DNA of 64,000 bases, from the NCBI GenBank assembly GCA_965242865.1, contig CBDETK010000013.1, positions 2,592,001-2,656,000 of the forward strand. Direction: 5' to 3'. Shown here in pieces: positions 2,224 to 40,115 of this stretch (positions are counted from its first letter, which is position 1; each line of letters opens with the position of its first letter). The notes beneath the pieces were generated by a model. It worked only from the letters and a program-made list of their open reading frames with translations, was not told the origin of the DNA and searched no databases. The position numbers and the translations under genes are program-made. Source of the stretch: Candidatus Latescibacterota bacterium (GTDB lineage: Bacteria; Latescibacterota; UBA2968; UBA8231).

Positions 2224-3234
2224 GTGTACCGCTTCGTCCTCAAGCGGCTCATCGCGCTCGTGCCGACGCTGGCGGGTATTTCGCTGTTGGTTTTTCTGAT
2301 GCTCTACTTGGTGCCGGGCGACCCGGCCCAAGTCATGCTCGGCGAGCGCGCCAATGCCGAGAGCTTGGCCGAGTTGCGCGCGACCCTGGGCCTCGACCAG
2401 CCCTTCCACGTGCAGTGTTACCGCTTCTTCGCCGGCCTGTTGCGCGGCGACTTAGGCCGCTCGATTCGCACTCACGAAAAGATCACCACCGAACTCGTCC
2501 AGCGCTTCCCGGCCACCTGCGAGCTCACGGTGGCCAGTATGCTGCTGGCCGTGACGGTCGGCATCGCGGCCGGCCTGTGGGCGGCTGTGCGACGAGGCAA
2601 AATCGCCGATCTCCTCAGCATGGTCTTGGCTACGGCCGGCATTTCCATTCCCGTGTTTTGGCTGGCCCTGATGCTCGTGTTGCTGTGGGCCTTTTACGTG
2701 CCGCTCTTTCCGGTGTCTGGCCGCTTGAGTACGCACATCTACTTTGAGCCGATCACCTATTTCTACGTACTCGACACGCTGATACAGGGCGATTTCGCGG
2801 CCTGCGGCGACGTGCTGTGGCACCTCTTCCTGCCAGCCCTGACCTTGGGGACCATTCCCATGGCCGTCATTGCGCGCATGACCCGCGCCAGCCTGCTCGA
2901 CGTCCTCGGCGAGGACTACATTCGCACGGCTTGGGCCAAGGGCCTGCAACAGCGGGTGGTGATTGTGCGCCACGCTCTGAAAAACGCCTTCATCCCCACG
3001 CTTACGGTCATTGCCCTCGAATTTGGCTACCTGCTCGGGGGCGCGGTTATCACCGAGACCATCTTTGCGTGGCCCGGGGTGGGACGCTGGCTCTTTTTGG
3101 CGGTGCAGGCGCGCGACTTCCGCGCAGTGCAGGGCGGGGTTTTGCTGCTGGCCACGGTCTTTGTGCTGGCCAACCTCATCGCCGACGTGCTCTACGCTTG
3201 GCTGGATCCGCGGATCCGCTACGACGAGGAATAG
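2224..3234 (+). CDS. dppB: Peptide ABC transporter permease (DppB-like)
   Basis: VPGDPA, GDLGRS, RFPATCEL, DYIRTAWAKG EAA-like loop, C-terminal LDPRIR. Confidence 0.9.
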   Translation: MYRFVLKRLIALVPTLAGISLLVFLMLYLVPGDPAQVMLGERANAESLAELRATLGLDQPFHVQCYRFFAGLLRGDLGRSIRTHEKITTELVQRFPATCELTVASMLLAVTVGIAAGLWAAVRRGKIADLLSMVLATAGISIPVFWLALMLVLLWAFYVPLFPVSGRLSTHIYFEPITYFYVLDTLIQGDFAACGDVLWHLFLPALTLGTIPMAVIARMTRASLLDVLGEDYIRTAWAKGLQQRVVIVRHALKNAFIPTLTVIALEFGYLLGGAVITETIFAWPGVGRWLFLAVQARDFRAVQGGVLLLATVFVLANLIADVLYAWLDPRIRYDEE

Positions 3235-3313
3235 AGTGTGGCTTTGGAGCGTCCGAGAATGTATTGTATATTGACCTCAGTTGTTTTCTGGCAATCATGC
3301 ACGGGAGTGAATA

Positions 3314-3655
3314 ATGGATTTCAGTAATCCTCTGATCTATATAATTCCCGGACTAGCCATTTTTGGCTATATCGTAAAATGGATTATTAAGGTAGAAAGA
3401 TGGATGGGCAAGATAGACGAGTCTATACGCTTGCTTGAAGAAGGTGCCCGCGAAATGAGGACGGATATTACTTCTATTCAGGTTGTGGAGAAAAACAGCC
3501 CGCTCCGCTTGACGGAAGCGGGGCACTCTATTTCCGAGGCGTTGGATGTTAAGGATCGCCCTGTTGGGTGCTTGGAATCGATGCCGATTTTAATACGTCA
3601 TAAGTCCTTGAAAAACAACGACTTACCCCCCCCCCCCCCGAAAATTCTCCGCTAG
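3314..3655 (+). pseudogene. Small AT-rich membrane-anchored hypothetical protein, apparently truncated and fused into the poly-C leader repeat from 3559
   Basis: RBS GGGAG, N-terminal TM helix then coiled coil; last ~31 codons are repeat sequence shared with 21017-21116. Confidence 0.5.
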
Positions 3656-4217
3656 CACCAAGCACTAAACTCTCTACTTCTCAGCATAGGCCGACAGCTC
3701 GTGTGCGGCCGTTGGGCGTCGCGTCGGTCTGGCCGCGTGGCCCCAAGCGCACGCTGCCGTGCGGCCGTTGGGCTGATCCACGTTTACGGCACCACCCCCG
3801 CAACTCGTCTGCCAAAGACCGAGGGCGGAATCTCCTCGCCCCAGATACCGCGAGAACACTAGCAAAGGCGCACCCAAAGCAAGGGGCGCGTCCTGAGCAC
3901 TCCAAGTTAGGCCCTAGGGCTAGCTCTGCCTCTTTCGGGGCGTCATGCCCCTCTTCCAATCTCCACACCATATCCACACAAAGGAGCAAAACATGCCTTC
4001 GTTGAGATCGATAAAAACCCTGTTTGGATTCGTCCTTTTGGGCATCGTCGGTGCTTGGATGGGCTGCTCAGACTCCGCGCCGGTCGCCTCTCGGCCGGCG
4101 GGCAAAGCCACCTGTTCCTTATGCGAATTCTTGGGCGACGAGACTTACACCGCTGCCGACGGGTTGGCCGCCCCCGAAAGCCCTGACACCACCGAGACCG
4201 AAGCCGAAGCTGACAGT
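3559..4217 (+). repeat. Dispersed leader + lipoprotein N-terminus cassette, copy 1 (palindrome, C14 tract, ~350 nt leader, signal peptide region)
   Basis: Aligns by eye along its length with the reverse complement of ~20430-21116, with scattered substitutions and small indels. Confidence 0.9.
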
Positions 4218-4336
4218 ACATCTGGGCGGACTATGGCACGAGTAAAATTCAGCATGCCGACCTAAATGGATCAAACGTCGCAGACCTCGTCACGGGATTG
4301 AATGTTCCATCGAGCATCGCGCTGGAATTTCGGTAG
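3993..4336 (+). pseudogene. Internally deleted lipoprotein of the LRR/YWTD family (paralog of 18901-20667)
   Basis: RBS AAGGAG, signal ...AWMGC and acidic linker; at ~4220 the frame shifts into one terminal YWTD-type repeat IWADYGTSKIQHADLNGSNVADLVTGLNVPSSIALEFR*. Confidence 0.8.
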
Positions 4337-4486
4337 TCATGGAGGTGAGGCGACGCGGCAGAACGGGCTAAGGAGCCGAGCGGGAAGGATGGCGACCGCC
4401 TCTACGACTTGTTCAACACGCCCCAAGGTAGGATCTTCAGACCGCTTCTAAGGATTGCCGTAAAAACGCAGACGCGAGGAGTAGCG

Positions 4487-4972
4487 ATGAATGCAGTGCG
4501 GCTGTTGTGCCTAGGGGTCGCGCTCGCGGCTTCTACCGCTTTAGATGCCGATAAAACCACCCGCCGAATCCGGCAAGCCGCGATTGCCTCGACCATCGCC
4601 GTGGTGGCCGAAGGCGACTTTGAGCCGAGAAGTATCGGCAGCTACAGCCTCCGAATATACGCCGCAACCGATCCCCGCTTCCCTTACGACCGCTTTATTG
4701 CCGGGGCTGTCCGGCCACGCGACGGGGTCGTCGAAAGGGTGCAATTCTCCGATCTGGACGACGACGGATCGCCCGAAATCGTCGTGATTGTTCGCTCGGT
4801 TGGCTCCGGCGGCTATCTCTCGGCAGACGCCTTTCAATTGCACGAGAAAGCCCCGACGTGGCTGGCGACGGTGGCTGGCTTGGCGCCGGACGACGACCCC
4901 ATTCGCGCCCTTGCAGTCAAGCTCAAAGCGGGGCCTGAACCGCCTGCGGTTCCAGACGACGACCGCCCGTAG
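4487..4972 (+). CDS. pliI: PliI-family inhibitor of invertebrate-type lysozyme
   Basis: RBS GAGGAG; signal peptide; VVAEGDFEPRSIGSYSLRIY, RDG and SVGSGGY motifs. Confidence 0.8.
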   Translation: MNAVRLLCLGVALAASTALDADKTTRRIRQAAIASTIAVVAEGDFEPRSIGSYSLRIYAATDPRFPYDRFIAGAVRPRDGVVERVQFSDLDDDGSPEIVVIVRSVGSGGYLSADAFQLHEKAPTWLATVAGLAPDDDPIRALAVKLKAGPEPPAVPDDDRP

Positions 4973-6191
4973 CCGGCGACGCGCTGCTGCATATTTCCGG
5001 GTGCTGCTTTAGGTAAGCAAGCAAGGCTTCCGCGGCCCACTGGTGGCCCGTCGCATTCCAGTGGCCATCGTGCGGCCAGTGCGAGTCTTTAATTCTCGCC
5101 CCACGCCCGAGGATGTAGTCGTATTCCTCAATGACGGGAATGCCCCGCGCCTCGGCCATGCTGTTCAGCCGATCGACGAGGAAGTCCTCGCCTCTCCGGC
5201 TGTGTACAGCCAAGATCACCAACGCGCTCCCGTCGCGGTCCGTGCGTTCCTTGAACTGGTCGAGGCCGAAAGCCGTGAATTCGCAGGCTTCCTCAAAGGC
5301 CGGCCCGGCCTCGGGCATTCGCGTTGTTGGCGTCCAATCGGCTAAAAGGGGTGCATAGCGGGGACGCTGGCTGAGAAGCCCCGCCCATGCAATGGCTCGG
5401 GGATGGGCATCGCGCGGAAAGAAGGCCCCTCTCTTGGCATCGAGGTAGTTTACGAACCGAGAAACCAGCCTCATGCGATTCACGAGCTGGTCTTGCAAGG
5501 GCCGCGGCAATCGGTGCTTTCGCCAATCGGGATCAGGCGGGCGCAGTTTGATGGTTCCGTCCGCCCGTCTGGCCGCAGACATCCACGGAAACCGATCCGG
5601 ATCCAACCCGGACGTGAGGGCGTGCAGAATCGCGGAGTTGTTTTGGAAATCGTTTGGAACGAAGACGAGCACTACGAGTTTGGGGCGCAGAGGCCGGGCG
5701 AACTCATCATAAAACGGCAGTTGATTGATCTGCCCGGTTCCAGAAATCCCAAAGGCCGAGGTCGTGACGTCCAGATGGGGTGCTGCCCGACCCGCGAGTT
5801 GTTCCAGCCGAACTTGAAATTTGTCGGCGATGGGAACGTGCATCGCATCGACAAAGGAATCGCCGATTATGGCGATGTGGCAGCTCTCGGCCGCACGGGC
5901 ATGGCTCGGGGGTTCGCGGTCCACGAAGCCCAGACTGTTGGTGCGGGAAACGGTCCAGAAATCGAGAAAATTCGTATGGCGCACCTCTGCGTTGGGTTGC
6001 CGGATGAGGCCCACCTTGGGAACGAAGCGAAAGGCACGCTCTTTGCTCGTAAACGGCCACGGACGAAGCAGGCGGAAATACGCCTCCCCGGCGATGGCGA
6101 TTAGGACCAGCCCGGCGATGAACAACAGCGCGTTCCAGCCGACCAATTGCAGCACCCGGCGGATGCGTGGCGGAGTTAAACCGTTGTCCAC
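4923..6191 (-). CDS. Membrane-anchored SGNH/GDSL hydrolase-like protein
   Basis: N-terminal TM helix; IIGDSF, FVPNDF and DGHWN blocks. Confidence 0.75.
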   Translation of the reverse strand: MDNGLTPPRIRRVLQLVGWNALLFIAGLVLIAIAGEAYFRLLRPWPFTSKERAFRFVPKVGLIRQPNAEVRHTNFLDFWTVSRTNSLGFVDREPPSHARAAESCHIAIIGDSFVDAMHVPIADKFQVRLEQLAGRAAPHLDVTTSAFGISGTGQINQLPFYDEFARPLRPKLVVLVFVPNDFQNNSAILHALTSGLDPDRFPWMSAARRADGTIKLRPPDPDWRKHRLPRPLQDQLVNRMRLVSRFVNYLDAKRGAFFPRDAHPRAIAWAGLLSQRPRYAPLLADWTPTTRMPEAGPAFEEACEFTAFGLDQFKERTDRDGSALVILAVHSRRGEDFLVDRLNSMAEARGIPVIEEYDYILGRGARIKDSHWPHDGHWNATGHQWAAEALLAYLKQHPEICSSASPATGGRRLEPQAVQAPL

Positions 6192-7312
6192 TCGCCCCGG
6201 TTGTTGGACGATTCGACCGCGGCCGCGACGAACTTCATGCCGGCGACGCCCTCTTGCACGCCCGGATGGGGAAAGGCCGCGGGCACATCCGGCTGGCCGC
6301 GGCGCGTGCGGATGAGCCGCTCGATCGTGGTGTGGAGGTTGGCGAGGGCCGGGAAGAAGTCCTCGTGGTGCCCCGAAGGCACCCGCAAGTACGAGACAAC
6401 GGCCGCGGGCAGGCCAAATTCAGCACCAATCCAATAGGTAATGTCGCGGCCATCGCCGCGGCGCAGGAGCAGGCATTCGGCCCGTTCCTGCCGCCACTCG
6501 ATGGAGCCTTGAGTGCCAAAGACGCGGAAGCCATTGTCGTTGCGGTAGCCGACCGCGATTTGCGTGGCCGTGATCAGGGCGGTGCCGCCGTTTTCCAGCT
6601 CGCCGATCACGTTGAAATCGTCGTCGAGTGCGCGGCCTTCAACAAAGGTGTTGAGGCGCGCCGACACCCGCTCAATGGCCAGCCCGGTCACCCAAGTCGC
6701 GGCGATGAAGGCATGGGTGCCAATGTCGCCGCCGCAATTGGAAATACCCGTGCGCTCGGGATCGGTGCGCCAAGACGCCTGCTGCTGGCCGGTCTGTTCG
6801 AGGGCCGTGGCCAGCCAGCCCTGATTATACCAAGAATCCACCTTGCGGATTGGGCCGATTTCGCCGCTCTGGATCATTTCTTTGGCCAGCATCATCATGG
6901 GATGGCCCGTATAGGTGTGGGCCAGCACAAAGGGCACGGACTCGCGCTCGACAATGCGCGCCAAGTCCTCGGCTTCGGCCACCGTCATGGTCATTGGCTT
7001 TTCGCAGAGCACCGGGATGCCGGCCTGCAAAAAGGCTTTGGCTGGCTCGTAGTGGGCGAAGTTGGGGGTGACGATGGTGACGTAATCAAGGGCTTGCTCG
7101 CCGCTTTGCGCGGCCGCCAACAGGGCCTGATAGGTGGGATACCCGGCAATGCCGTAGTCGTCGGCCGCGCGCATGGCCGCCGCGGGGTCGGACCGCAGCG
7201 CGCCAGCGACCAATTCGCGGCTGGCGTCGAGCGCGATGGCGCGGTTGTGAACCATGCCAAAAAAGGAATCCGGGCCACCGCCGCCGATCATACCTACTTT
7301 GAGTTTGTTCAT
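6176..7312 (-). CDS. Gfo/Idh/MocA-family oxidoreductase
   Basis: KVGMIGGG, VTPNFAH, CEKP, GDIGTH; RBS AGGAG. Confidence 0.9.
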   Translation of the reverse strand: MNKLKVGMIGGGGPDSFFGMVHNRAIALDASRELVAGALRSDPAAAMRAADDYGIAGYPTYQALLAAAQSGEQALDYVTIVTPNFAHYEPAKAFLQAGIPVLCEKPMTMTVAEAEDLARIVERESVPFVLAHTYTGHPMMMLAKEMIQSGEIGPIRKVDSWYNQGWLATALEQTGQQQASWRTDPERTGISNCGGDIGTHAFIAATWVTGLAIERVSARLNTFVEGRALDDDFNVIGELENGGTALITATQIAVGYRNDNGFRVFGTQGSIEWRQERAECLLLRRGDGRDITYWIGAEFGLPAAVVSYLRVPSGHHEDFFPALANLHTTIERLIRTRRGQPDVPAAFPHPGVQEGVAGMKFVAAAVESSNNRGEWTTV

Positions 7313-7453: not shown

Positions 7454-7801
7454 TCAACCAATGATGGTTTTGACTATCCGCCGAAGTTGGTCTTGGTCCG
7501 CCGGTTGCAGTTGCCCCAGCTTTTTAATGACCAACCCTTTTTCGATGGTAGTGATCACCGGCTTTACGACCGAAGGTTTGAGCAGTCCGGCTTGCCGCCA
7601 GCCAGCTATCGAGAATTCTCCGAGTGTTTGCATTGATTCAACTCGGCTTGTAACTGCTGCGATGACGACATCTGGTTTGGCAGCGTTATAAGCGGATGTA
7701 CTGATGACCGTTGCCGGGCGTTTTTTATGGCTGGTTTGGTCGGTAAAAGGGAACGGCACCAAGACGAGGTCGCCGAAGCTATAGGTTGTCGTATGCTGCA
7801 T
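7454..7801 (-). CDS. PemK/MazF-family toxin (type II TA)
   Basis: GDLVLVPFPFTD..KKRPA motif, 115 aa, overlaps the upstream small gene. Confidence 0.85.
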   Translation of the reverse strand: MQHTTTYSFGDLVLVPFPFTDQTSHKKRPATVISTSAYNAAKPDVVIAAVTSRVESMQTLGEFSIAGWRQAGLLKPSVVKPVITTIEKGLVIKKLGQLQPADQDQLRRIVKTIIG

Positions 7802-7997
7802 CCTCTGAATTGTCCCAGACTCGATTAAAGCTAGCCTCAGCGGTCCTTAATGCAGCCTGAGTTAGTTCCCGCTCCTGATCTTTGTGGTAGAGGAAATCGA
7901 TGAAATCCTCAACCGTGGCAAGGCGTTCCGGCGGCAGTAATTGGAGTTTGTGAAGCACCTGTTGAATGAGTGCTTGTTGGTCCCTAGGTGAAATCAT
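7779..7997 (-). CDS. Putative antitoxin (DUF2281-like)
   Basis: Small ORF directly upstream of the toxin; LPPERL..VEDFIDFL and acidic tail VWDNSEDAAYDNL. Confidence 0.7.
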   Translation of the reverse strand: MISPRDQQALIQQVLHKLQLLPPERLATVEDFIDFLYHKDQERELTQAALRTAEASFNRVWDNSEDAAYDNL

Positions 7998-8008
7998 CGC
8001 AATTCCCT

Positions 8009-8105
8009 TAGAAGCGTTCACGGTCTAGAAGGGCGGTCGCGGGGGACGCGCCCCTACGTGTCGCAACGTGCGTATTAAAAACGCATCCGACTTGGGGCTG
8101 TCAAA
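8009..8105 (+). repeat. 97-bp direct repeat, right of TA module; REP-like palindrome at 8031-8057
   Basis: Identical to 7339-7435. Confidence 0.95.
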
Positions 8106-8106
8106 T

Positions 8107-8853
8107 TCACGGGACGCGCAGCACGGCCGGAGGTAGGCCCTGTTGCAATTGGCTGGGGTCCAGCCCGCTGTTGAAGGCATAGCGTTTGTAGGCCAGCACC
8201 AGCGAGATGTTGGCTTGACGTATTTCCACGCGGCGCGGCAGGTACAGCGCGGCTGCGCGGCGGTATTCTCCCAACTCGCGGAGCAGGACGTCGCCTGCGG
8301 GCAGCGGGCGGCTCTCGCGCACCACCAAGCCGCGGCGCAAATCCAGCCACGCCCGTCGCCCGTCGGTAAGCGCGACCACCGCACGGTCGGCGCGCGGATA
8401 CTCGACCGGCTCGGCGATGGAACCCGGCTCGACGAGGCCGAGCAAGGCGTAGCGCAGATCGCCGGCCCCCAAGTCCAGCCCCGTCAGCGTGGTTAGCAGC
8501 CGGCCGCGCACCGTTCCTTTTAGAGGCTGGTCCATGCCGCGGCCATACACGGTCAGGCTGTCGCCTTCGAGTAGAGCCGTAAAAATGTGGGTGAAAAAGG
8601 GGCCGCGCACTTCAACGCGGAAGAGATCGGGGTTGATTAGCTGCACGAGGGCTGTCCCCCGGTCGCGCCGCGCGCCGCGCCGCAGCTCAATGGCCGCTTC
8701 GGCCGTCAGGTCATCGAACTGGGCCAGAGAGGCCGAGGCCGCGAGCAAGGCGGCCGGTCCTTGGGCCGCGTCCCAGCCTTGGCGCACCACCGGCGGCGGG
8801 GTGCAAGCGAGCGCGAGGGCGCAGAGCGCGAACCGCTTCAACCACACGCGCAT
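8107..8853 (-). CDS. Lipoprotein, LolB/DUF4292-like
   Basis: ATG overlaps the TPR gene stop; lipobox LALAC; beta-rich; typical position after a TPR gene. Confidence 0.55.
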   Translation of the reverse strand: MRVWLKRFALCALALACTPPPVVRQGWDAAQGPAALLAASASLAQFDDLTAEAAIELRRGARRDRGTALVQLINPDLFRVEVRGPFFTHIFTALLEGDSLTVYGRGMDQPLKGTVRGRLLTTLTGLDLGAGDLRYALLGLVEPGSIAEPVEYPRADRAVVALTDGRRAWLDLRRGLVVRESRPLPAGDVLLRELGEYRRAAALYLPRRVEIRQANISLVLAYKRYAFNSGLDPSQLQQGLPPAVLRVP

Positions 8854-10745
8854 CACGGCAGCAGCTTGCGCCGGACCTCTTCGTTGTCCGGCGCGAGTTC
8901 CAGCACCTTTTGCCAGTGGGCGCGCGCCTCGCCCGGTTTGCCGAGCGCGCTGGCAATATCGCCGGCGTGGTCGAAGATCACGGCCTGTTCCTCGGGATCG
9001 CCCTCGTCCATCTGCTCCAAGGCTTGTTGTAGGTAGTGTTCGGCCTGCGCCAGCTCGCCGAGGCGGAAGTAGGCCCAACCCATGCTGTCGAGAAACGCGC
9101 TGTTGTCCGGCTCGATCGCGATCGCCTTCTCCAAGAGCTCGACCGCTTCGGTCAGCCGCATGCCCTTGTCCGCGTACATGTAGCCGAGGTAGTTGAGGGC
9201 GTAGGCGTCGTTTGGGTCGATCGCCAAGAGGCGTTGAAAGGTCTCGATGGCGCGATCGAAGTACTCGTCGCGGCCGAGTTTGCGCGAAGCCTGCTCATAG
9301 CAGGAGCCGAGGTAAAAGAGCGCGTGGCTCTCGTCGCCGGCGAGCGCGACCGCCCGCTGTAGCTTCTCCAGCGCGGCTTCCCAATGCTCCAATTCTTCTA
9401 GTGCGATGCCCCAGTGCAAAAAGGTCGGGCTGTACGCAGAGTCGAGCGCGGCCGCTGTTTCGTATTGGGCCAGCGCGGCTTCCCACTGCCCCTGCCGCCC
9501 CAAGCCGATGCCCCACCGCACGTGCAGCACGGCGTCGTCCGGGGCTACGGCGAGTGCTTGGCGATAGACAGCAATGGCCTCTGCCCAAGCGTCTTGTTGC
9601 TCTAGCGCGAGCCCCCAGTACAGATATATGTCAATGGCGTCGGGCAGGCGCTCGAGGCCGCGCTGGTACACGGCGATGGCCTCGTCGTAGCGCTCGGTGT
9701 TCTCCAAGACGGTCCCCCAGTACAGGTAAATCTCGCTGCTGTCCGGCATGGCTTGGGCCGCTTGGCCGAGGACGGCGGTGGCGGAATCGTAATCCTCCAA
9801 GTAGATGTAGTAGCGCACTAGGTCGGTCCACTGCTCGACCGTTTGGGGTTGCATCTCGACGATGCGCTTAAAAACCAACGTGGCTTGGTCGTACTGGCCG
9901 GCCTCGGACAGGGCCACTCCCAAGTGATAGAGCACCTCGGCGCCCTCTTCAGCGAGAATGTCCTCTAGGTCGTGCTCGGTGACCATGAGCCGCGCCAAGT
10001 AGTAAGGGACGCTGCTGTCGGGCAGGTGTCTAGCGGCTTTTCGGTAGATGGCGATGGCCTCGTGGCGGTGCTCCTGCGCCAGCTTGAGTTCGGCTAGACC
10101 CAGCCAAGCGTCCTCGACCTCGGGATCGGCCGCGAGGACCCGGTGATAGATGCGCTCGGCCTCTTTTTGCCGGTTGATGCGAAAAAAAATGCCGGCGATG
10201 TCCACCGCGACCTCGGGCGGCACTTGCTCTTGGGCGAGCACCCCCTCAAAGAGCGGAGCGATTTGCTCGGGCTGGCCCGTTTCAAAGTAGAGATAGGCCA
10301 AGTGGCGGTAGAGCGGCCAGTTGGCCGGCTCGTAGCGCAGCAGTTGTTCGATGTGGCCGATGGCACGCTCGCGGTCCCCTTCGCGCTCCAAGAGCCGAAT
10401 CAGCATGCGGCGCAACCGCACTTGGCTGCCTTCCAATGCCAAGCTCGCGTGGGCAAAGTGGGCGGCCATCAGGGGGTCGTCGATGCGCTGGTAGTTGTAA
10501 GCGAGACGGGCGTAAATGGTGGGCGAGGCCGGGTCGAGGTCGGCGGCCGAGCGCAGGGCGACGATCGCGCCGAAGTAGTTGTGCTGGGCTTCAAAGACCT
10601 TGGCCTTGACAAAGTATTGCATAGCTTGGTCGGCGTTGGTCGGCCCGGCGGGCGCGGGCGCGTTGTGGCCCCTCAGACCCGCGCAGCCGCCCGCGGACAG
10701 CGCGAGGACGCAGAGCAGGGGGAGGAGATGCGAGACATTGTTCAT
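8853..10745 (-). CDS. TPR-repeat lipoprotein
   Basis: Signal ...AGGC; many TPRs; ALNYLGY..AD and FLDSMGW terminal motifs. Confidence 0.88.
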   Translation of the reverse strand: MNNVSHLLPLLCVLALSAGGCAGLRGHNAPAPAGPTNADQAMQYFVKAKVFEAQHNYFGAIVALRSAADLDPASPTIYARLAYNYQRIDDPLMAAHFAHASLALEGSQVRLRRMLIRLLEREGDRERAIGHIEQLLRYEPANWPLYRHLAYLYFETGQPEQIAPLFEGVLAQEQVPPEVAVDIAGIFFRINRQKEAERIYHRVLAADPEVEDAWLGLAELKLAQEHRHEAIAIYRKAARHLPDSSVPYYLARLMVTEHDLEDILAEEGAEVLYHLGVALSEAGQYDQATLVFKRIVEMQPQTVEQWTDLVRYYIYLEDYDSATAVLGQAAQAMPDSSEIYLYWGTVLENTERYDEAIAVYQRGLERLPDAIDIYLYWGLALEQQDAWAEAIAVYRQALAVAPDDAVLHVRWGIGLGRQGQWEAALAQYETAAALDSAYSPTFLHWGIALEELEHWEAALEKLQRAVALAGDESHALFYLGSCYEQASRKLGRDEYFDRAIETFQRLLAIDPNDAYALNYLGYMYADKGMRLTEAVELLEKAIAIEPDNSAFLDSMGWAYFRLGELAQAEHYLQQALEQMDEGDPEEQAVIFDHAGDIASALGKPGEARAHWQKVLELAPDNEEVRRKLLP

Positions 10746-30500: not shown

Positions 30501-30763
30501 CCGGGGCGGCCCGCTTCCGCCCCATCCTCCTCACCTCCCTGACGACCTTCTTTGGGCTGTTGCCGATGATCCTCGAAAAAAGCATCCAAGCGCAGTTCCT
30601 AATCCCCATGGCCGTCAGCTTGGGCTTTGGCATCCTCTTTGCCACCTTCATCATTTTGCTGGGCGTCCCGGTGGGCATGCACCTGCTGGTGAAAGCACAG
30701 GGGCTTTGGGCGCGGTTGGGCGCGGGTAAAACCGCCTCGGTCGCGCCGGTTCCTGAGTCTTGA
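27560..30763 (+). CDS. RND efflux permease (AcrB family)
   Basis: 1067 aa; GIVVDDAIIVGEN, GVVVNDS, RFRPILLTS. Confidence 0.93.
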   Translation: MKAPVAWMAKNHVAANLLMGFIMLSGLFSMMQTKKETFPEMSLDQVQIQVPYLGATPAEVEDAVCKRIEERVRGLEGVRRVRSTAAEGMGSVSIELERGADLDKLLDDIKNEIDRIDTFPAEVEEPVIKELTRRNQAIDVVLYGEVEEKALKVAAERVRDDLRSSGVISQVELKGVRVDEIAIEVSEEALRRYGLTFAQVADAVRRTSLDLPAGRVESEDGAILLRTQGLMRSGREYEEVVVLTRPDGTALKLKDMATVVDGFEDTELISRFNGQPAAVVQVYRIGDQSALDISAYVHQYIEDKRSTLPAGIHINYARDDARILRSRIDLLIRNARLGLVLVFICLSFFLDLRLAFWVMMGIPISFLGAFVLMEPFDASINMLSLFAFIVALGIVVDDAIIVGENIFAHRVQGKPFGRAAIDGALEVGTPVTFSIMTSIAAFMPLFFVEGLMGKFMSVMPVIVISVLLLSLIESLFILPAHLSSEGDGALSRLVRRLLARPLAWHDRVVVLFDRGLQYVIHNAYQPTLRLALAHPISSAALALSLMMGTGGLIAGGHIKFVFMPEIGSDWVTISVNMPQGTTASQTAKVVQYIEEKALALRDQIDAERASEDSIYRNVFTYIGDQPTARRSSFASAPGAGGQGHLAEITIELQPSEERDFDSTEIESQLRQRVGEVPGPESIVFSSLLFSAGNPIEVELAADNFDQLLLAVDRLKGKIAEYAGVGDIQDSFEEGKLEMKLQLKPQARTLGLTLADLARQVRQGFYGDQALRFQRGSDDVRVMVRYPKGERRNLGDVRSMRVRTPSGAEVPFGEVATVAIGHAYASIQRTDGQRVVRVTASVDDQVANADEINRDLESSLLPALAADYPGLRYRFGGEQKEQQDSLQSLLSNFAIALFAIYMLLAVPFKSYTQPLVVMSAIPFGIIGAVWGHLLMGLDLALLSFFGIVALSGVVVNDSLVLLTFYNQMLRGGTPHAEALVSAGAARFRPILLTSLTTFFGLLPMILEKSIQAQFLIPMAVSLGFGILFATFIILLGVPVGMHLLVKAQGLWARLGAGKTASVAPVPES

Positions 30764-32394
30764 AGGATTGGTGGGGTGGTCTGTTGCCGTTGTGCATGGT
30801 GGCTTGTGCGCCGGCGGACGGCCCTCCCTTCATTGACAAGGCCGGCGAGTGGGGCTTGGACCGGCCCCACGTCGGCGGCGGCGCGGAAAAGCGCTATATC
30901 GTCGAAGCCAAAGGCGGCGGGGCCGCGCTCCTCGACGCAGACTTGGACGGCGACTTGGACATCTACTGGGTCAATGGGGAGGGCGGTGGCAATGCCCTCT
31001 ACCGCAACGACCACAACGACCGCGCCCGCAACTTTGTCGATAGAGCGGTCGCGGCCGGGGTGGTGGGTCGCGGCTGGGGCATGGGGGCGCTGAGCGCGGA
31101 CTACGATGCCGACGGCGACGCCGATTTGTACGTCACGTGCCTGCGCGAAAACATCCTCTATCGCAACGACGGGTTGGAGCAATTCGCCGACGCTACGGCC
31201 AGCGCCGGGCTGGCGCTGCCGGTGTGGAGTACGGGCGCGGCCATGGGCGACGCGGACTTGGACGGCGACTTGGATTTGTACGTGGCCAATTACGCGGATT
31301 TTGATTCGGCCACAGTGCGGCCCTTGGGGACGCAGTGGAAGGGCCGGGACGTGTTCGTCGGCCCGCTGGGCTTGCCCGCGCAGCCGGATGTGCTCTACCG
31401 CAACGAGGGCGCGGGCGTCTTTACCGATGTGACGGCCGCCAGCGGCCTCGGGCGGCCTGACCCGGGCTATGGGTTTGCCGTGCTCTTCGTGGACAGCGAC
31501 GACGACGGCGATTTGGACTTGTATGTCGCCAACGACTCAACGCCCAATTTCCTCTACCGCAACGATGGTGCCGGTATCTTTGCCGAAGTGGGGTTACGGG
31601 CCAACGCCGCGCTGGGGGAAACGGGCTTGGCGCAGGCTGGCATGGGCGCGGCGTGGGGCGATTACGACAACGATGGCGACAGCGATTTGCTGGTCACCAA
31701 CTTTGAGGACGACTACAACACGCTCTATCGCAACACCGGCCGCGGCACTTTTGCGGACGTGAGCTTTGCCGCTGGCTTGGGGCGCATCAGCCTTCCCTAC
31801 GTGGGGTTTGGCGCGGTCTTTTTCGACTTTGACAACGACGCCGACCCAGACTTATTCGTGGCCAACGGGCACGTGTACCCCCAAATCGAACGCCCGGGCA
31901 GCGGCGCGACCTACGCGCAAGCCAACCACTTGTTCGCCAATGACGCCGGTCACTTCCGCCTCGTTGAGCGCGCCCCAAGCGAGAAGCAGGCGGTCAGTCG
32001 CGGCGCGGTGGCCGGGGACTTTGACGACGATGGCCGCTTAGACCTGTTCGTCACCAACCTCAACGGCCGGCCCTCCCTGCTGCACAACCAGACGACCGCT
32101 GACCACCACTGGCTCGGCCTGCGCCTTGTGGGCGCGGGAAAAAACCGCGAGGCCGTTGGTGCGAAGGTCGTATTGTGGAGCGGCGGTCAAAAGCAGCGGC
32201 GGGATGTGCTCTGCGGCGAGAGCTTCTTGGGCAGCGGCGACCGGCGCGTGCATTTTGGCTTGGGCGCAACGGGCCGAGCGGATTCGCTGCACATCTATTG
32301 GCCGAGCGGGGTGCTGCAACGGCTAATTGACTTGCCGATTGATGAGTATGTGAGGGTTGAGGAGGGAGTTGATGGCGGCGTTGGAGTTTGGTAG
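30760..32394 (+). CDS. CRTAC1-family protein (FG-GAP/VCBS repeats + ASPIC/UnbV)
   Basis: Repeated D.D.DGD.DLYV..N....LYRN; RVHFGLG and WPSG at the C-terminus. Confidence 0.88.
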   Translation: MKDWWGGLLPLCMVACAPADGPPFIDKAGEWGLDRPHVGGGAEKRYIVEAKGGGAALLDADLDGDLDIYWVNGEGGGNALYRNDHNDRARNFVDRAVAAGVVGRGWGMGALSADYDADGDADLYVTCLRENILYRNDGLEQFADATASAGLALPVWSTGAAMGDADLDGDLDLYVANYADFDSATVRPLGTQWKGRDVFVGPLGLPAQPDVLYRNEGAGVFTDVTAASGLGRPDPGYGFAVLFVDSDDDGDLDLYVANDSTPNFLYRNDGAGIFAEVGLRANAALGETGLAQAGMGAAWGDYDNDGDSDLLVTNFEDDYNTLYRNTGRGTFADVSFAAGLGRISLPYVGFGAVFFDFDNDADPDLFVANGHVYPQIERPGSGATYAQANHLFANDAGHFRLVERAPSEKQAVSRGAVAGDFDDDGRLDLFVTNLNGRPSLLHNQTTADHHWLGLRLVGAGKNREAVGAKVVLWSGGQKQRRDVLCGESFLGSGDRRVHFGLGATGRADSLHIYWPSGVLQRLIDLPIDEYVRVEEGVDGGVGVW

Positions 32395-32522
32395 GTTGTC
32401 CGTCGATAGCACTGAATGGCGGTATAGTTGAGGATAGTAGGGCCGCTGTTCCGACACACTTTCACTTCGTGTGACCAGATGCCCCGGTTGCTAGTACACA
32501 TAAACTATTGGAGATGATTAAG

Positions 32523-33917
32523 ATGTTCGAGCGTTTGCGAATACAAAACTTTAAGGGGTGGCAGGATACTGGCCGCATTCGCATGGCTCCTATTACTCTT
32601 TTCTTTGGTGCCAACAGTTCCGGCAAGTCCAGTATCGGCCAGTTTCTGATGATGCTAAAGCAGACGGTTGAATCACCAGATAGGAAGGCGGTGTTTCACC
32701 TTGGTGGGAAAAACACAGCGGTCCAACTCGGCTCCTATCGGGAAATGGTTTTTCGCCGCGATCCAAAAAAGGAAATCTCGTTTGAGTATCAGTGGTCGCT
32801 TCCCAACAGCTTAACAATTAAGGATCCTATTTCAGAGCGATCACTTAAAGGAGATGCGTTAGTTTTTGCAGCAGAAGTAGGATTGAGCGACTCAAATTTG
32901 CTTGAAGTTAAAAAAACCAAATACCGAGTTTTTAAGGAAGACTATCAGTCGCTGTCCGTTGGGTTAGAAGAAGGCGATAAACGGAATTACGCGGTATCCG
33001 CGGAGGGGTACGATCTCGTCAGAAAAAGAGGACGTGGCTGGCCTCTAAGAGGCCCTGTGCGCTTCTATGGCTTTCCAGACGAGGCGGTTACCTATTACCA
33101 GAACGCTGAGTTTCTTCAGGAACTGAACCTAGAGCAAGAATTGTTGTTCAAATCCATCTACTATCTTGGCCCGCTTAGAACAAGGGCCGATAGACTTTAT
33201 ACATGGACTGGTATCACGCCTGAAAGCGTTGGTTTTGCAGGCGAAAATACCGTAGCAGCCATTCTTGCTGCACGAGACCGTAGAATTAGCTTGGGGCACC
33301 GGAAGCGAACCAAGCGATTAGAGGAGATCGTCTCCTCCAAGTTGGAGAAGATGGGATTGCTCGAGAAATTCAAGGTCGATTCCATCCCTGAGCAAAGGCA
33401 AGAATATGAAGTCAAGGTGCACGCGAAAGGCTCAGCGGATTGGGTAGATCTCCCAGATGTCGGCTTTGGCATTTCGCAGGTACTCCCAGTGCTCGTGCAG
33501 TGTTTTTACGCTCCACCGGGATCAATAATCATCATGGAGCAGCCAGAAATCCACCTTCACCCCAGTGCTCAATCGGCCCTAGCCGATGTGATGATTGATG
33601 TGATCAATTCCAAGGAAAATGGTAGAGACAGAAATATCCAGTTGATCATTGAAACCCACTCCGAGCACTTTTTGCGACGCCTACAAAGGAGAATTGCAGA
33701 AGGTGTCATAGATGAGGCAACAGTGTCGGCTTACTTCGCCGATATTAACAAATTTCCCGCCAAGTTAGAGCCTCTACAAATAGACGAGTACGGCAACATT
33801 CAGAACTGGCCGGAACATTTCTTTGGCGATGAGATGGGGGACATTCTCGCGCAGACTGAGGCAGGCATAAAAAGGAGGATGCAATCACAACAAGACACTC
33901 GTGGATTGGAGAAATAA
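32523..33917 (+). CDS. ABC-type ATPase with DUF3696-like C-terminus
   Basis: IQNFKG, GANSSGKSS, YLGPLR, DVGFGISQVLP, EQPEIHLHP, ETHSEH, IDEYGNIQNWPEHFF; low GC. Confidence 0.85.
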   Translation: MFERLRIQNFKGWQDTGRIRMAPITLFFGANSSGKSSIGQFLMMLKQTVESPDRKAVFHLGGKNTAVQLGSYREMVFRRDPKKEISFEYQWSLPNSLTIKDPISERSLKGDALVFAAEVGLSDSNLLEVKKTKYRVFKEDYQSLSVGLEEGDKRNYAVSAEGYDLVRKRGRGWPLRGPVRFYGFPDEAVTYYQNAEFLQELNLEQELLFKSIYYLGPLRTRADRLYTWTGITPESVGFAGENTVAAILAARDRRISLGHRKRTKRLEEIVSSKLEKMGLLEKFKVDSIPEQRQEYEVKVHAKGSADWVDLPDVGFGISQVLPVLVQCFYAPPGSIIIMEQPEIHLHPSAQSALADVMIDVINSKENGRDRNIQLIIETHSEHFLRRLQRRIAEGVIDEATVSAYFADINKFPAKLEPLQIDEYGNIQNWPEHFFGDEMGDILAQTEAGIKRRMQSQQDTRGLEK

Positions 33918-33919
33918 AA

Positions 33920-34445
33920 ATGAAATTCGTCATAGATACCAATGTCGCCATTGTAGCTAATGGCCGAAAGGACGATCTTCCGTCTGATATTCCAAAGAAT
34001 TGCATTAATGAATCTATCGAGAAAATTAAAAATGTCACAGAAAAAAATTATTGTCTCGTTGTTGATGCTGCTGACGAAATTTTCTATGAATACATAAAGA
34101 GCCCCTACCTTTCTTTGAGAGGTCAGCCCGGTATTGGGGACAAATTTGTCAAATGGGTACATGATCATCAATTTAATCCAAGTAAAGTGGCCCGCGTAGA
34201 AATCACCAAAAGCGGAAGCTCTTACAAAGAATTTCCCGACCACCCTGATTTGCATAACGTTTGATTCTTCTGATCGCAAGTTCGTCGCTGTCGCAAATGC
34301 CCATCCTGAAAAGCCGCCTATTTTACAGGCAACGGATAGCAAGTGGTGGGGATGGAAGGATGCTTTGGCCGAAGTTGGAATTACGGTCTGTTTTCTCTGT
34401 CAAGAATTTGTTGAGAAAAAGTACGCGGATAAGATGGGTGCGTGA
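33920..34445 (+). pseudogene. PIN-like nuclease split by one extra base near 34259
   Basis: FVIDTNV start; shifted frame from 34260 reads FDSSDRKFVAVANAHPEKPPILQATDSKWWGW...MGA* and ends in a GTGA overlap with the next gene. Confidence 0.75.
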
Positions 34446-35131
34446 TCGACGCTTTCTTTAAGTTCCCCTCAACGCCACACTTGGCACTCCTCGGCGACGC
34501 CGATGTCAGGAATGATAAGGTCTTGACGGTAGCCGAGCGGAATGAATTTTTGTGCCGTGAGTTGGTCGTCGAAGAAAAAATCGATGGGGCCAATCTCGGC
34601 ATTTCGTTTGATCTCGACGGAAATATTCGCGCCCAAAATCGGGGCGCGTACTTGGAGCTTCCCCGGTCAGGACAATGGAAAAAGCTCTCGGAGTGGTTGA
34701 CGCCGAGAACAGAGACGTTTTTTGAACATCTGTTTGACCGTTACATCCTTTTTGGGGAATGGTGCTATGCTCGGCACACGGTCTTCTACGACCGGCTACC
34801 GGACTGGTTTCTCGGATTCGACGTCTATGATAGGGAAACGGACCGATTTTTATCTTGCGACCGACGCAATGAGCTCTTTCGCTCTATTCGCATTTGTCCC
34901 GTCCCGACCGTCAGACGCGGTTGCTTCACGCTCTCAGAACTGAGCGAACTTCTATTGCAGTCAATGCTCGGCGAGCACCCCGCAGAAGGCATTTATCTCC
35001 GGTCTGATCGCAGTGGCTGGTTGGTTCAGAGGGCCAAGTTGGTTCGTCCCGCCTTTGTTCAGTCAATAGAGCAGCACTGGTCTCGTAAGGACATTGCGCC
35101 CAATCGGTTGAAGTGGGAGGTTCGGACATGA
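34442..35131 (+). CDS. RNA ligase family protein (Rnl2-like nucleotidyltransferase domain)
   Basis: KFPSTPHL, motif I EEKIDGAN, FGEW, FLGFDVY, EGIY, RAKLV. Confidence 0.85.
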   Translation: MIDAFFKFPSTPHLALLGDADVRNDKVLTVAERNEFLCRELVVEEKIDGANLGISFDLDGNIRAQNRGAYLELPRSGQWKKLSEWLTPRTETFFEHLFDRYILFGEWCYARHTVFYDRLPDWFLGFDVYDRETDRFLSCDRRNELFRSIRICPVPTVRRGCFTLSELSELLLQSMLGEHPAEGIYLRSDRSGWLVQRAKLVRPAFVQSIEQHWSRKDIAPNRLKWEVRT

Positions 35132-35158
35132 GTACATCCCTGCTAGCGGCTCAGTGTC

Positions 35159-35409
35159 TTGCTGGTCACCAACTTTGACGACGATGGCCGCTTAGACCTG
35201 TTCGTCACCAACCTCAACGGCCGGCCCTCCCTGCTGCACAACCAGACGACCGCTACCCACCACTGGCTCGGCCTGCTCCTTGTGGGCGCGGGAAAAAACC
35301 GCGAGGCGGTCGGCGCGAAGGTCGTATTGTGGAGTGGCGGTCAAAGGCAGCGGCGGGATGTGCTCTGCGGCGAGAGCTTCTTGGGCAGCGGCGACCGGCG
35401 CGTGCATTT
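35159..35409 (+). repeat. Degenerate duplicate of part of the CRTAC1 gene, internally deleted
   Basis: First ~20 nt match ~31688-31706, then jump at shared ACTTTGA to 32018-32255; several substitutions. Confidence 0.9.
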
Positions 35410-35645
35410 AAATAATTTAGGATGGCTATATCGGTGTGTTAGGCATCGGGAAGGTGGTTTTTTATAAACCGTTGCGTCGTCTTTTTTTCTTATATCAAGC
35501 TCGTATGAGCATCAATCACAATTTCGCCTACCTTATAGCCATTTTTATCTTTCAGGGGCACCCGCCAGATACGATAGCGATCATCTACTTCTGGAAGTCC
35601 AAACTGAATCGCATTGTCGAGATCAATATCTTTTAGATAATTCAC
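35410..35645 (-). pseudogene. AT-rich gene remnant, possibly the N-terminal part of an N4/N6 DNA methyltransferase
   Basis: Reads VNYLKDIDLDNAIQFGLPEVDDRYRIWRVPLKDKNGYKVGEIVIDAHTSLI*EKKTT; family assignment from memory only. Confidence 0.45.
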
Positions 35646-35681
35646 AGAAACAACAGTCTAAGGCGTAACGAACGCACGTGC

Positions 35682-38388: not shown

Positions 38389-38985
38389 TTAGTTTTCCAC
38401 GCTTTCAAATAGATCCAAGTGCTCACCTGTGCCAACGAGTCTCCCATGTAAATGCCGAATGTCAATCACTGCCCCAAAGCGAATGAATATCTTTTCAAAG
38501 TGCTCGTACTGCGGCCCCCAATAGATCAGTGCGCAGGACATCGGGGCACCCTTACCGCCATCCTTCCCGTTTACGAGGAAGCGCAGCCGGGTGTCGTAGA
38601 GAAATGCAACCGCAGTAGCAGTGCCAAACACGTATTGTTTCCAGTGGCGAGTATTCGTGGCGACGGGCACTAGAGCGATCACTTCAACACCATGTTGTAC
38701 GTGAGCTTCGGTGCATTTTCGGAGCCAATCTCGAATCGTGGTGCCTCTCTCGCGGTCCCTGCCGTATGGAGGATTGACGAAAACGGTAGGATAATCCCAC
38801 GACGCCGACAACCCGTCAATCTCAGGCAGGGAGTACTCTACAGTCGCCCTCACGATAGAATGGCGATTGGCGCATGGGTCCAACGCGACTGATCCGGCAA
38901 AAAACTCTCGTATCGCGTTAACGTACTTTGGAGGGGTACACCAATGTTGGCTTAGCACTTCGGCATTGTTGCGTCCTGCGGTCAT
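38389..38985 (-). CDS. DNA N6-adenine methyltransferase (phage Dam-like)
   Basis: WCTP, LDPC, DGL..SW, FVNPPY, LVPV.T.T..W. Confidence 0.85.
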   Translation of the reverse strand: MTAGRNNAEVLSQHWCTPPKYVNAIREFFAGSVALDPCANRHSIVRATVEYSLPEIDGLSASWDYPTVFVNPPYGRDRERGTTIRDWLRKCTEAHVQHGVEVIALVPVATNTRHWKQYVFGTATAVAFLYDTRLRFLVNGKDGGKGAPMSCALIYWGPQYEHFEKIFIRFGAVIDIRHLHGRLVGTGEHLDLFESVEN

Positions 38986-38999
38986 GCCTAGCCGTCCTC

Positions 39000-40115
39000 C
39001 TACCAGTCTTTTGCGGCAAGTTTTCGCAAGTCAGCCTGAAGGTTCTCAATCGTACCGTCACGGGGAGAGATGATGTTAAACCACGTCTCGATCTCAGCTT
39101 CGTGCGCCGTGAAGTAGCTTCGGAGTGCCTCGTCTGCGTCAGTGGCCATGCGCACCTTGGTAAATATATTCGTTCCAGATCCGCGGGGATAACTCGCCAA
39201 GAATGCCTCACGAACAGGTGCCAACTCTGGTGTGGGATTGATCAGCAGCCTGTCAATGAACTGGGACAACCCAGCATCGGTAAGGAACAAAAGCCAGTCG
39301 TATGACTGAGCCAGAACGCGAAGTTCCTTGTTGTGGTTGTCAGAGGTAAACCAGTTACCATGGTTGCTGACGACGCCAACGGAGAGTACGAATCCAGCGA
39401 GTTCGATAATCGACGATGCGTCAATGGCTTCCCGGAGTAGTTCGTCGTATAGGCCGGTTCGAAAGCTACCGTCGGATTGTTCCATGACTCCTTGGAACTG
39501 CCCATTCCTAAGCCGCACTTTTTGCAGGGAAGACACGGACCGTGCAACATAAGCACCCTGTTTTGCCTTTTCAATCGTCTGCGGCCCTTTTCGCATCCCT
39601 TCCTCCACGCCTACGCGCTTGCATTCAAAGATCGCGAACGGATCCCTGGAGAGCAGACATACGATGAGTTTGCAAATAGAACCATTCAATGTATCAACAT
39701 TAGCAATAACTGGACCTGTTTTGCTCTCTATAAGGACAGCTGCGTTGCGCTTCACGGCGTCTTTGCTGAGTACCTGAGTTGATTTGACAGCCATTCCTCG
39801 TAGAAAGGGCAAGTGATGCTTGATCTTTGCGGCCGTGAGAGGAAGGGATAACGAGGCGATCTCGACTTCATGGCGTTCTCTGATGGGGTGAAGTGAGAAC
39901 TCGACGTTGTGCAATATCTCAGGGTTGGCGAACTCAGGCACTGAGCGCTCAATGACGATATGGTCACGAAGATTCCACGTACGGAGAGTGTAAAATGCGA
40001 CGATCTCAACGAGCGTCCCCAACGCACGACCTGCGGCCTTCTTTCGGTCCGCGGCGTAACGGAAGACCGTGTCTGCCAGAGTTCTTTGAAGTGCATCAAC
40101 TGACTCAAAGACCAA
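39000..40115 (-). CDS. Putative type II restriction endonuclease
   Basis: Low-GC ORF directly upstream of the MTase; PD-(D/E)xK-like FECKRVG; RBS AGGAGA. Confidence 0.6.
   Translation of the reverse strand: MVFESVDALQRTLADTVFRYAADRKKAAGRALGTLVEIVAFYTLRTWNLRDHIVIERSVPEFANPEILHNVEFSLHPIRERHEVEIASLSLPLTAAKIKHHLPFLRGMAVKSTQVLSKDAVKRNAAVLIESKTGPVIANVDTLNGSICKLIVCLLSRDPFAIFECKRVGVEEGMRKGPQTIEKAKQGAYVARSVSSLQKVRLRNGQFQGVMEQSDGSFRTGLYDELLREAIDASSIIELAGFVLSVGVVSNHGNWFTSDNHNKELRVLAQSYDWLLFLTDAGLSQFIDRLLINPTPELAPVREAFLASYPRGSGTNIFTKVRMATDADEALRSYFTAHEAEIETWFNIISPRDGTIENLQADLRKLAAKDW

Follow-up and report, generated by a model that had tools for sequence, protein, structure and literature searches.

What does an RNA ligase do when its gene lies directly behind those of an ATPase and a putative ribonuclease (RNase), and is such a trio a defence system of its own or a variant of a known one? 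The question is raised by a stretch of 64,000 nucleotides (nt) from Candidatus Latescibacterota bacterium (GenBank assembly GCA_965242865.1, contig CBDETK010000013.1, positions 2,592,001 to 2,656,000 of the forward strand; referred to here as the window), in which genes for an ABC-type ATPase, a PIN-like protein and an RNA ligase follow each other head to tail on the plus strand. An original prediction, made from the sequence without database searches, had seen in them a phage-triggered RNA-cleavage system with a built-in repair enzyme, in a combination that it did not recognise as a named system. Its observations are partly confirmed and its interpretation is partly supported. The ATPase and PIN genes do carry a name, since PADLOC identifies them as HEC-03 (Payne et al., bioRxiv 10.1101/2024.01.29.577857), and the ligase lies outside the two-gene system described under that name. 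A match to a described system, which the prediction had counted as a refutation, thus exists for two of the three genes. The ligase proved to be linked to the pair, and the PIN gene of the window is frameshifted.

The combination of ATPase, PIN and RNA ligase has no description in the literature searched. Judged from sequence, the pair is thus a known one and the conserved ligase would make an undescribed variant of it, as far as those searches reach. On balance, we favour the reading that the locus is a 2.7-kilobase (kb) cassette of the HEC-03 family, horizontally acquired in a three-gene form and decayed in this genome, whose ligase would reseal the cuts made by the PIN protein.

The three genes of the cassette

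The cassette (32461-35158) is set off from its surroundings by base composition, with a GC content of 0.44-0.52 against 0.62-0.68 around it (the fall was read across 32500-35000 of the GC profile), as the original prediction had noticed. Alignments also break at both edges. On the left, the resemblance to L218, a paralogous locus in the window's own genome, ends at about 32460, and on the right, similarity to the cassettes of two genomes of the same genus, G012 and G030, ends at about 35158. Inside, the stop codon of the ATPase gene (TAA, 33915-33917) is followed after 2 nt by the ATG of the PIN gene (33920), and the GTG of the ligase gene (34442) overlaps a TGA at 34443-34445. The tight coupling that had been claimed for the three genes therefore holds at both junctions, but the PIN gene is not a single open reading frame (ORF): the TGA that overlaps the ligase start closes the frame at 34260-34445 and not the frame that begins at 33920.

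The ATPase gene (32523-33917, plus strand, with an alternative TTG start at 32508) is intact and encodes 464 amino acids (aa) with a DUF3696 tail. The best of its 107 matches in PADLOC is the HEC-03 ATPase model PDLC04148 (4e-130, 432.9 bits, positions 1-456 of 458), and the Menshen NsnB model follows far below in second place (2.7e-61). Pfam assigns AAA_15 (5e-25), DUF3696 (5.4e-8) and AAA_21; matches to NCBIfam were all below threshold, and sequence searches of the PDB were weak (best E 0.009 for the ATPase and 0.07 for the ligase). The Walker A motif is of standard form (GANSSGKS) and is accompanied by a Walker B motif, IMEQPE, and by ETHS. When the window protein was aligned with 72 relatives, Walker B read h-h-E-Q-P-E in 73/73 sequences, E-Q replacing D-E, and GFG[IV]SQ occupied the position of the LSGGQ motif of ABC ATPases; these changes resemble the motif alterations reported for Menshen NsnB. 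The altered Walker B hints at slow hydrolysis, and the protein would be the sensor or regulator subunit of HEC-03. Its genome holds 28 further matches to the HEC-03 ATPase model, the best at G000:C13:3919949-3920704 (8.5e-40) and G000:C13:5471161-5471736 (2.5e-26), and thus several other ATPase genes of the AAA_15/DUF3696 type.

The PIN-like gene is present in two plus-strand pieces, at 33920-34264 (114 codons, then a premature TGA at 34262-34264) and, in the +1 frame, at 34260-34445 (61 codons and a stop). They match the HEC-03 PIN model PDLC04147 at positions 1-104 of 159 (2.7e-23) and 108-155 (4.1e-7), and Pfam gave no match for either piece. The fold was assessed on a model of the protein from an intact relative, L074, predicted with a pLDDT of 94.9. 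In VIA-align all of the top 15 rows were PIN-domain proteins, 12 of them VapC/FitB toxins (Z 9.1-7.2), with VapC21 (Z 9.1, root mean square deviation 3.1, 124 residues aligned) and VapC15 (Z 9.1) among them; Foldseek matches of the same model in the PDB were weak, with E of at least 0.059 and none at E<=0.001. Across 94 relatives D10, D117 and D120 do not vary, and the conservation of E61 and D141 is 90% or more; the pieces in the window keep all five. No VapB-type antitoxin gene lies upstream of the PIN gene, where the gene for the 464-aa ATPase is found instead. Sequence and model together point to a protein of PIN fold, probably a VapC-like nuclease with its acidic active-site residues kept.

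The ligase gene (34442-35131, plus strand) is intact and encodes a minimal ATP-dependent RNA ligase of 229 aa that consists of the nucleotidyltransferase domain only (PF09414, 1.5e-31); none of the PADLOC models matches it. Invariant in 94 ligase sequences are K46 in EEKIDGAN (motif I), E106 in LFGEW, E182-G183 in EGIYLR and R197/K199 in RAKLV (motifs III-V). The structural model (pLDDT 88.7) shows one domain, and its top Foldseek matches are REL1, NgrRnl, Rnl3 and T4 Rnl2, with E from 2e-8 to 2e-6, representing the Rnl2, Rnl5 and Rnl3 types. Three pairwise comparisons between the window, G012 and G030 gave ratios of non-synonymous to synonymous substitution (dN/dS) of 0.20-0.32 for this gene. 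All three domain calls of the original prediction, an ABC ATPase with DUF3696, a PIN domain and an RNA ligase, were thus borne out.

Linkage of the ligase to the ATPase and PIN genes

Whether the ligase belongs to the pair was examined from both sides. A set of 80 loci centred on the ATPase (39-74% identity) covered many bacterial phyla and one archaeon. The PIN gene adjoins the ATPase gene in 77 of them; two of the others could be assessed and have no PIN gene, and one locus ends too early. Behind the PIN gene of the 77 loci there is a full ligase in 45, a ligase cut by the contig end in three, a partial one in four and none in 20, while five loci were not assessable, so that a ligase is present in 52 of 72. 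PIN and ligase genes keep the same order and strand throughout, their start and stop codons frequently overlap, and the gap between them is 0-50 nt except in L042 (a 73-nt overlap, estimated) and L073 (a 2449-nt insert). The latter locus is decaying, with 2.4 kb inserted between PIN and ligase (7526-9972) and its ATPase split; in L010 and L015, which are decaying too, the ligase gene behind the PIN gene is reduced to its first 48 and 37 codons.

The reverse set was centred on the ligase and drawn from metagenome contigs. Among the best 80 of 464 confirmed matches (46-70% identity), a PIN gene lies upstream in 72 of 77 assessable loci; 63 of these 72 also have the ATPase, which in the other nine would lie beyond the contig end. 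The remainder of the best 80 comprises three loci with an ATPase but without a PIN match, two with neither, and three that were not assessable. The original prediction depended on the ligase accompanying the pair elsewhere, and in both directions it does. One instance is mobile: a conjugative plasmid of Aeromonas salmonicida carries the trio next to AbiEii and Hok/Gef genes, and its annotation names the three products 'DUF3696 domain-containing protein', 'hypothetical protein' and 'RNA ligase family protein'.

The picture is different on viral contigs. Of 47 ligase loci found there, 44 were assessable; three have the ATPase-PIN pair (44-47% identity), and the remaining 41, none of which exceeds 45% identity, lack it. 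The sequences thus suggest that the HEC-03-linked ligases form a distinct, close group (at least 46% identity), with their next relatives on phage and giant-virus contigs. Relatives of 35-39% identity were seen on the GVMAG-labelled contigs L177, L179 and L181, and others on phage contigs of 100-440 kb. The Pseudomonas aeruginosa plasmid pF051 (L225, 3956-5974) carries a PF09414 ligase of 34% identity followed by an 'AAA family ATPase' gene, with no HEC-03 genes; we take these two to be possibly a pair of the ligase-kinase repair type.

Proposed role of the ligase

A working scheme can be drawn by analogy with Menshen, for which AlphaFold models place NsnC between the two DUF3696 tails of NsnB (PMC12065111, in the part available). 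The cassette ATPase would likewise use its C-terminal DUF3696 helices to bind the PIN protein and keep it inactive, and a phage cue sensed by the ATPase would free or activate the RNase. The PIN protein would then nick cellular or phage RNA, and translation would stall. Because PIN chemistry involves metal-assisted departure of the 3'-O leaving group, as stated in the available section of a review on PIN domains, metal-dependent cleavage is expected to leave 3'-OH and 5'-phosphate ends, which would be a direct substrate of an ATP-dependent ligase. Sealing such ends requires no end-healing enzyme, and the cassette encodes none. By resealing the nicks, the ligase may buffer leaky toxicity and permit recovery, acting as an enzymatic antidote and not as part of the killing step.

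An antidote of this kind fits both the dispensability of the ligase, discussed below, and the toxicity reported for the two-gene form, which, according to the accessible text of the HEC-03 preprint, was not induced owing to apparent toxicity (10.1101/2024.01.29.577857). From the sequences, a built-in repair enzyme as originally proposed is therefore a plausible role for the ligase. With less assurance, at somewhat short of an even chance, the prevalent natural form of HEC-03 could be a cut-and-reseal module composed of a sensor ATPase, a PIN RNase and a host-encoded minimal ligase, in which arrest is reversible and leaky activation harmless. If most natural copies do carry a coupled ligase, the two-gene form that was tested is the less common arrangement, the molecule attacked is very likely RNA, broken so as to leave 3'-OH and 5'-phosphate ends, and the distinction between suicidal and reversible RNA-cleavage defence becomes directly testable.

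Several observations weigh against resealing as the function of the ligase. It is missing from the 20 assessable loci mentioned above, 10 of which belong to a distant group with 38-43% ATPase identity. In a quick, unrooted IQ-TREE phylogeny of the ATPases, for which 72 of the 80 loci passed the length and stop filter, nine ligase-less rows form a clade on a long, fully supported branch. The other clade, of 64 rows, contains 47 with a ligase, 11 without and six unscored, and the ligase-less rows are scattered in it, which forces at least four changes between presence and absence. No RNA-repair family was found as a substitute third gene among 14 neighbours of ligase-less loci scanned by Pfam. 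Since, in addition, the published HEC-03 works with two genes, the ligase is dispensable for defence. It can also persist alone, because G030 retains an intact ligase gene (94% nt identity, dN/dS 0.32) without the ATPase-PIN pair. Finally, the enzyme has no C-terminal domain of the T4 Rnl2 type proper, and its structural matches span only the nucleotidyltransferase part of ligases of 320-380 aa (TMt 0.35-0.54). T4 Rnl2 deprived of its C-terminal domain is reported to be unable to adenylylate RNA, and a ligase reduced to the nucleotidyltransferase domain might therefore need a partner or do something other than sealing. Prediction of a complex of PIN and ligase from two alignments, run without controls, gave scores of 0.00 and 0.00, which speaks neither for nor against a complex.

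Part of this would be expected if the ligase were a passenger, or an independent RNA-repair gene, that shares defence islands with HEC-03 and has no functional tie to the PIN RNase. Defence by the pair alone (as far as the preprint text goes), the absence of the ligase from 20 of 72 loci and its survival without the pair in G030 all agree with a passenger, as does the size of the ligase family, which counts 3691 clusters at E<=1e-3 with members in phages and beside other partners. We nevertheless consider a passenger unlikely. The linkage holds in both directions, with 52/72 and, within the best 80 of 464, 72/77 loci, and it is kept over many phyla, in one archaeon and on a plasmid. Fixed order and strand, short gaps in all but two of the ligase-bearing loci and frequent start/stop overlaps speak against a mere neighbour, and it is the closest group of ligases that is linked and the distant ones that are not. 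Even the orphan gene of G030 still has the final ~9 codons of a PIN gene in front of it, which indicates a recent replacement of the pair and not a free-standing gene.

Quite improbable, in our view, is that the ligase takes part in the attack by adenylylating, circularising or mis-joining the RNA ends made by the PIN protein, and so produces damage that the phage cannot repair, or a signal. Such a role would suit an enzyme that has the nucleotidyltransferase domain without the C-terminal domain of Rnl2-type ligases. Relatives are labelled 'ATP-dependent RNA circularization protein' in one source, and the nearest unlinked relatives are phage-borne ligases, as would fit an arms race over RNA ends. 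On the other side, the tested system and 20 natural loci do without the ligase, and all of the sealing motifs, motif V included, are invariant. We know of no precedent for an attacking ligase of this type. Resealing of PIN-made cuts thus remains the role that we favour.

Frameshift in the PIN gene

The copy in the window is unlikely to perform any of these functions. A single additional G, at 34259, puts its PIN gene out of frame by +1: in a DNA alignment with two relatives the window reads AAC-G-TTTGAT, against AGC-TTTGAT in G012 and AAT-TTTGAT in G047. Aligned with intact relatives, the first piece corresponds to their N-terminal 110 residues, and the two pieces abut with no residue missing ('...FPDHPDLHN' then 'FDSSDRKFVAVANAH...'). 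The second piece is 80% identical to the L074 protein and carries the acidic motifs FDxSD and ATDSKW. In all of the 67 related loci that have both halves, these are in one continuous frame.

The extra base recurs in contigs from public runs. X1 (32406-35201) and X2 (32226-35201) match the window with 0 differences and 0 gaps and contain both the extra G and the junction between the ligase and the duplicated flank. Since these two possibly come from the window's own source sample, the sole independent support for the extra G is X4, a contig from another study and under another organism label, which matches 33986-34273 and 34966-35385 with 0 differences and whose first matching piece ends 14 bases past 34259. 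Contigs of run X6 match 33778-34217 and 34283-35130 at 95-99%, and the body of their ATPase gene before 33778 is unlike that of the window.

Comparison with the intact cassette of G012 (L236) suggests how the frameshift arose. Nucleotide identity is 62% in the ATPase gene (dS 2.517) and 59% in the first PIN piece (for which the method returned -1 and dS was not computable), and it rises to 84% in the second PIN piece (dS 0.462) and 88% in the ligase gene (dS 0.344). The jump falls exactly at the extra G. We infer that two cassette lineages were joined imperfectly by recombination at this base; an ordinary insertion where a conserved block begins is possible. With a frameshift in its PIN gene and a degraded flank, the cassette is HEC-03 by descent but decayed and probably inactive in this genome; its ATPase and ligase ORFs remain intact. 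That the PIN frameshift is instead bypassed by a +1 slip at GUU-UGA, giving a low dose of PIN protein and an active cassette, is very improbable: a 0-frame stop does stand directly after GTT, the slip would yield ...HNVDSSD... at unchanged length, relatives have V, L or F at the slip position, the downstream piece shows no further damage and the same extra base appears under two organism labels, but the frame is uninterrupted in all 67 relatives, the conservation of F at that position is 90% or higher, no Shine-Dalgarno-like stimulator was seen upstream in the sequence, the insertion sits at what looks like a faulty recombination joint, and the flank of the cassette is visibly degraded.

Flanks, neighbours and the supposed fourth gene

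The original prediction had suspected a fourth gene, cut off behind the ligase by a duplicated flank. The overlap that suggested it is real, as an ATG at 35128 overlaps the ligase stop (35129-35131). The ORF that it opens (35128-35178, plus strand) has only 16 codons and is unlikely to be a gene. Behind the ligase the window genome, G012 and G030 have a stretch in common that reaches to about 35158; it is a non-coding spacer in the latter two, and G012 has ATA in place of the ATG. The start of a truncated fourth gene at 35128 was rejected on this alignment of two same-genus loci, and no gene was therefore cut off here.

More distant relatives do not supply a fourth component either. In eight distant loci an ORF of 908-983 aa (or cut by the contig end) directly follows the ligase; it is a helicase of the SNF2 type in 4/4 cases checked with Pfam and BrxHI in 2/2 checked with PADLOC, and it belongs to the surrounding host system and not to the cassette. 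Upstream, 15 of 49 neighbours scanned match defence models, six of them PglXI. In L033, L034, L069 and L074 the trio has a PglXI-type methylase on one side and on the other a large helicase ORF (SNF2 by Pfam in L034 and L069, BrxHI by PADLOC in L034, and assigned from the shared N-terminus in L033 and L074), which agrees with the concept of an 'embedded' system. The window cassette does not stand between BREX-like methylase and helicase genes, its flanks being an FG-GAP/ASPIC gene and gene fragments.

The duplicated flank was confirmed as a direct repeat of 238 nt, with copies at 32018-32255 and 35172-35409 that are 97% identical. The left copy lies within an intact FG-GAP/UnbV_ASPIC gene (30760-32394), and the right copy (plus strand) is an internal fragment of such a gene. 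A third copy (95%) occurs at G000:C13:182039-182276, inside a truncated paralogue. A target-site duplication or att site was ruled out as the origin of the repeat, given that the right copy is an internal gene fragment, that it is not contiguous with the left junction and that a third copy sits in a paralogue. Further right, on the minus strand, lies a 183-nt fragment of an SPPY-type DNA methyltransferase gene (35469-35651, about codons 24-84), in which a stop codon takes the place of a Gln codon of the full copy; it matches G000:C13:3451289-3451471 at 95%, within an ORF of 396 aa. The region right of 35158 is thus a patchwork of gene fragments, FG-GAP/UnbV_ASPIC first and methyltransferase next, and both look like filler copied in during deletion repair. 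The flanking ORFs scanned with Pfam, two upstream and one downstream fragment, are AcrB and FG-GAP/UnbV_ASPIC. Scanning the locus for sigma-70 promoters and terminators returned no more sites than in shuffled sequence. A second dip in GC (0.50-0.56) is seen at 38500-40000 of the window, some 3 kb beyond the right edge of the cassette.

The same-genus genomes place these events in context. G012 has an intact trio whose PIN protein, of 179 aa, matches the HEC-03 model at 2.2e-27; behind the trio comes a DUF4159 gene in convergent orientation. In G030 (L237, G030:C1:3297000-3309000, 2580-6782) the PIN remnant and orphan ligase follow a Tiamat TmtA gene split into two overlapping ORFs, which match PDLC03967 at positions 4-211 and 214-1057, and an IS4/5 transposase is near. 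One chromosomal spot in one genus thus holds an intact trio, a trio with a frameshifted PIN gene, and a split Tiamat gene with an orphan ligase, so that cassettes are both swapped and broken there. The spot downstream of the FG-GAP/ASPIC gene looks like a hot spot for the turnover of defence cassettes.

Comparison with known defence systems

The closest described system is HEC-03, one of nine 'Hma-embedded candidates' (Payne et al., bioRxiv 10.1101/2024.01.29.577857), in which, according to the accessible text, an ABC ATPase and a VapC-like PIN protein are both needed for defence in E. coli. The cassette shares with it an ABC ATPase with DUF3696 tail followed by a VapC-like PIN gene, the same gene order and matches to both hidden Markov models (PADLOC-DB v2, PDLC04148 and PDLC04147); the names differ between sources, PADLOC calling the ATPase 'B' and the PIN protein 'A' and the text of Payne et al. 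the reverse. It differs in that the published and modelled system has two genes, whereas the window and most relatives add an RNA ligase translationally coupled to the PIN gene, and in that the PIN gene of the window is frameshifted while the published test requires both genes. The word 'ligase' has 0 occurrences in the main text of the HEC-03 preprint, and its supplementary tables of embedded genes may mention one. In the available part of a 2026 preprint, HEC-03 is still listed as active with its mechanism undescribed.

Menshen (NsnABC; Millman 2022) is related through its NsnB-type ABC ATPase with a DUF3696 tail. Both ATPases have an altered Walker B, E-Q in the cassette and E-N in NsnB, and both have a partner with a PIN-like fold (PMC12065111, in the part available). 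As the original prediction had noted, the DUF262 subunit of Menshen is absent: the cassette (32461-35158) has three genes only, and a ParB/DUF262 subunit of the NsnA type is not among them. The PIN proteins differ as well. That of the cassette has about 176 aa, keeps its acidic residues and has no BECR nuclease domain, whereas, in the same portion of PMC12065111, the PIN-like domain of NsnC has lost the acidic residues and is fused to a BECR nuclease. Nothing in Menshen corresponds to the ligase, and the word 'ligase' has 0 occurrences in the text of PMC12065111 that was available.

Pairing of an effector with a repair enzyme has been predicted before. A table entry in PMC5499597, which cites such predictions by Burroughs & Aravind 2016, names PIN_3/COG1569 proteins and also an HNH nuclease. 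With no Pfam match to PIN and no HNH domain, the cassette differs from what that entry describes, and overlap between the two is possible. In DarT-DarG, ADP-ribosylation of DNA is reversed by a neighbouring enzyme. The likeness to the cassette is one of logic only, namely that one enzyme damages nucleic acid and the enzyme encoded next to it chemically reverses the damage; chemistry and folds are unrelated, and DarT-DarG has no ATPase sensor.

The nuclease of PrrC is fused to its ATPase and is not a PIN domain, and its products need end-healing by a kinase-phosphatase, an activity for which the cassette has no gene. PrrC and RloC and their phage T4 opponents, Pnk and Rnl1 (PMC2610378, in the part available), share with the cassette, as proposed here, an RNA-cutting effector under the control of an ABC ATPase and an RNA ligase that undoes the cut. 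There it is the phage that supplies the ligase and overcomes the defence with it, whereas here the ligase gene is part of the defence cassette itself. If natural HEC-03 does cut and reseal, it would have an antidote built into an abortive-infection system, and it would invert the classic case in which an RNA ligase is the counter-weapon of the phage.

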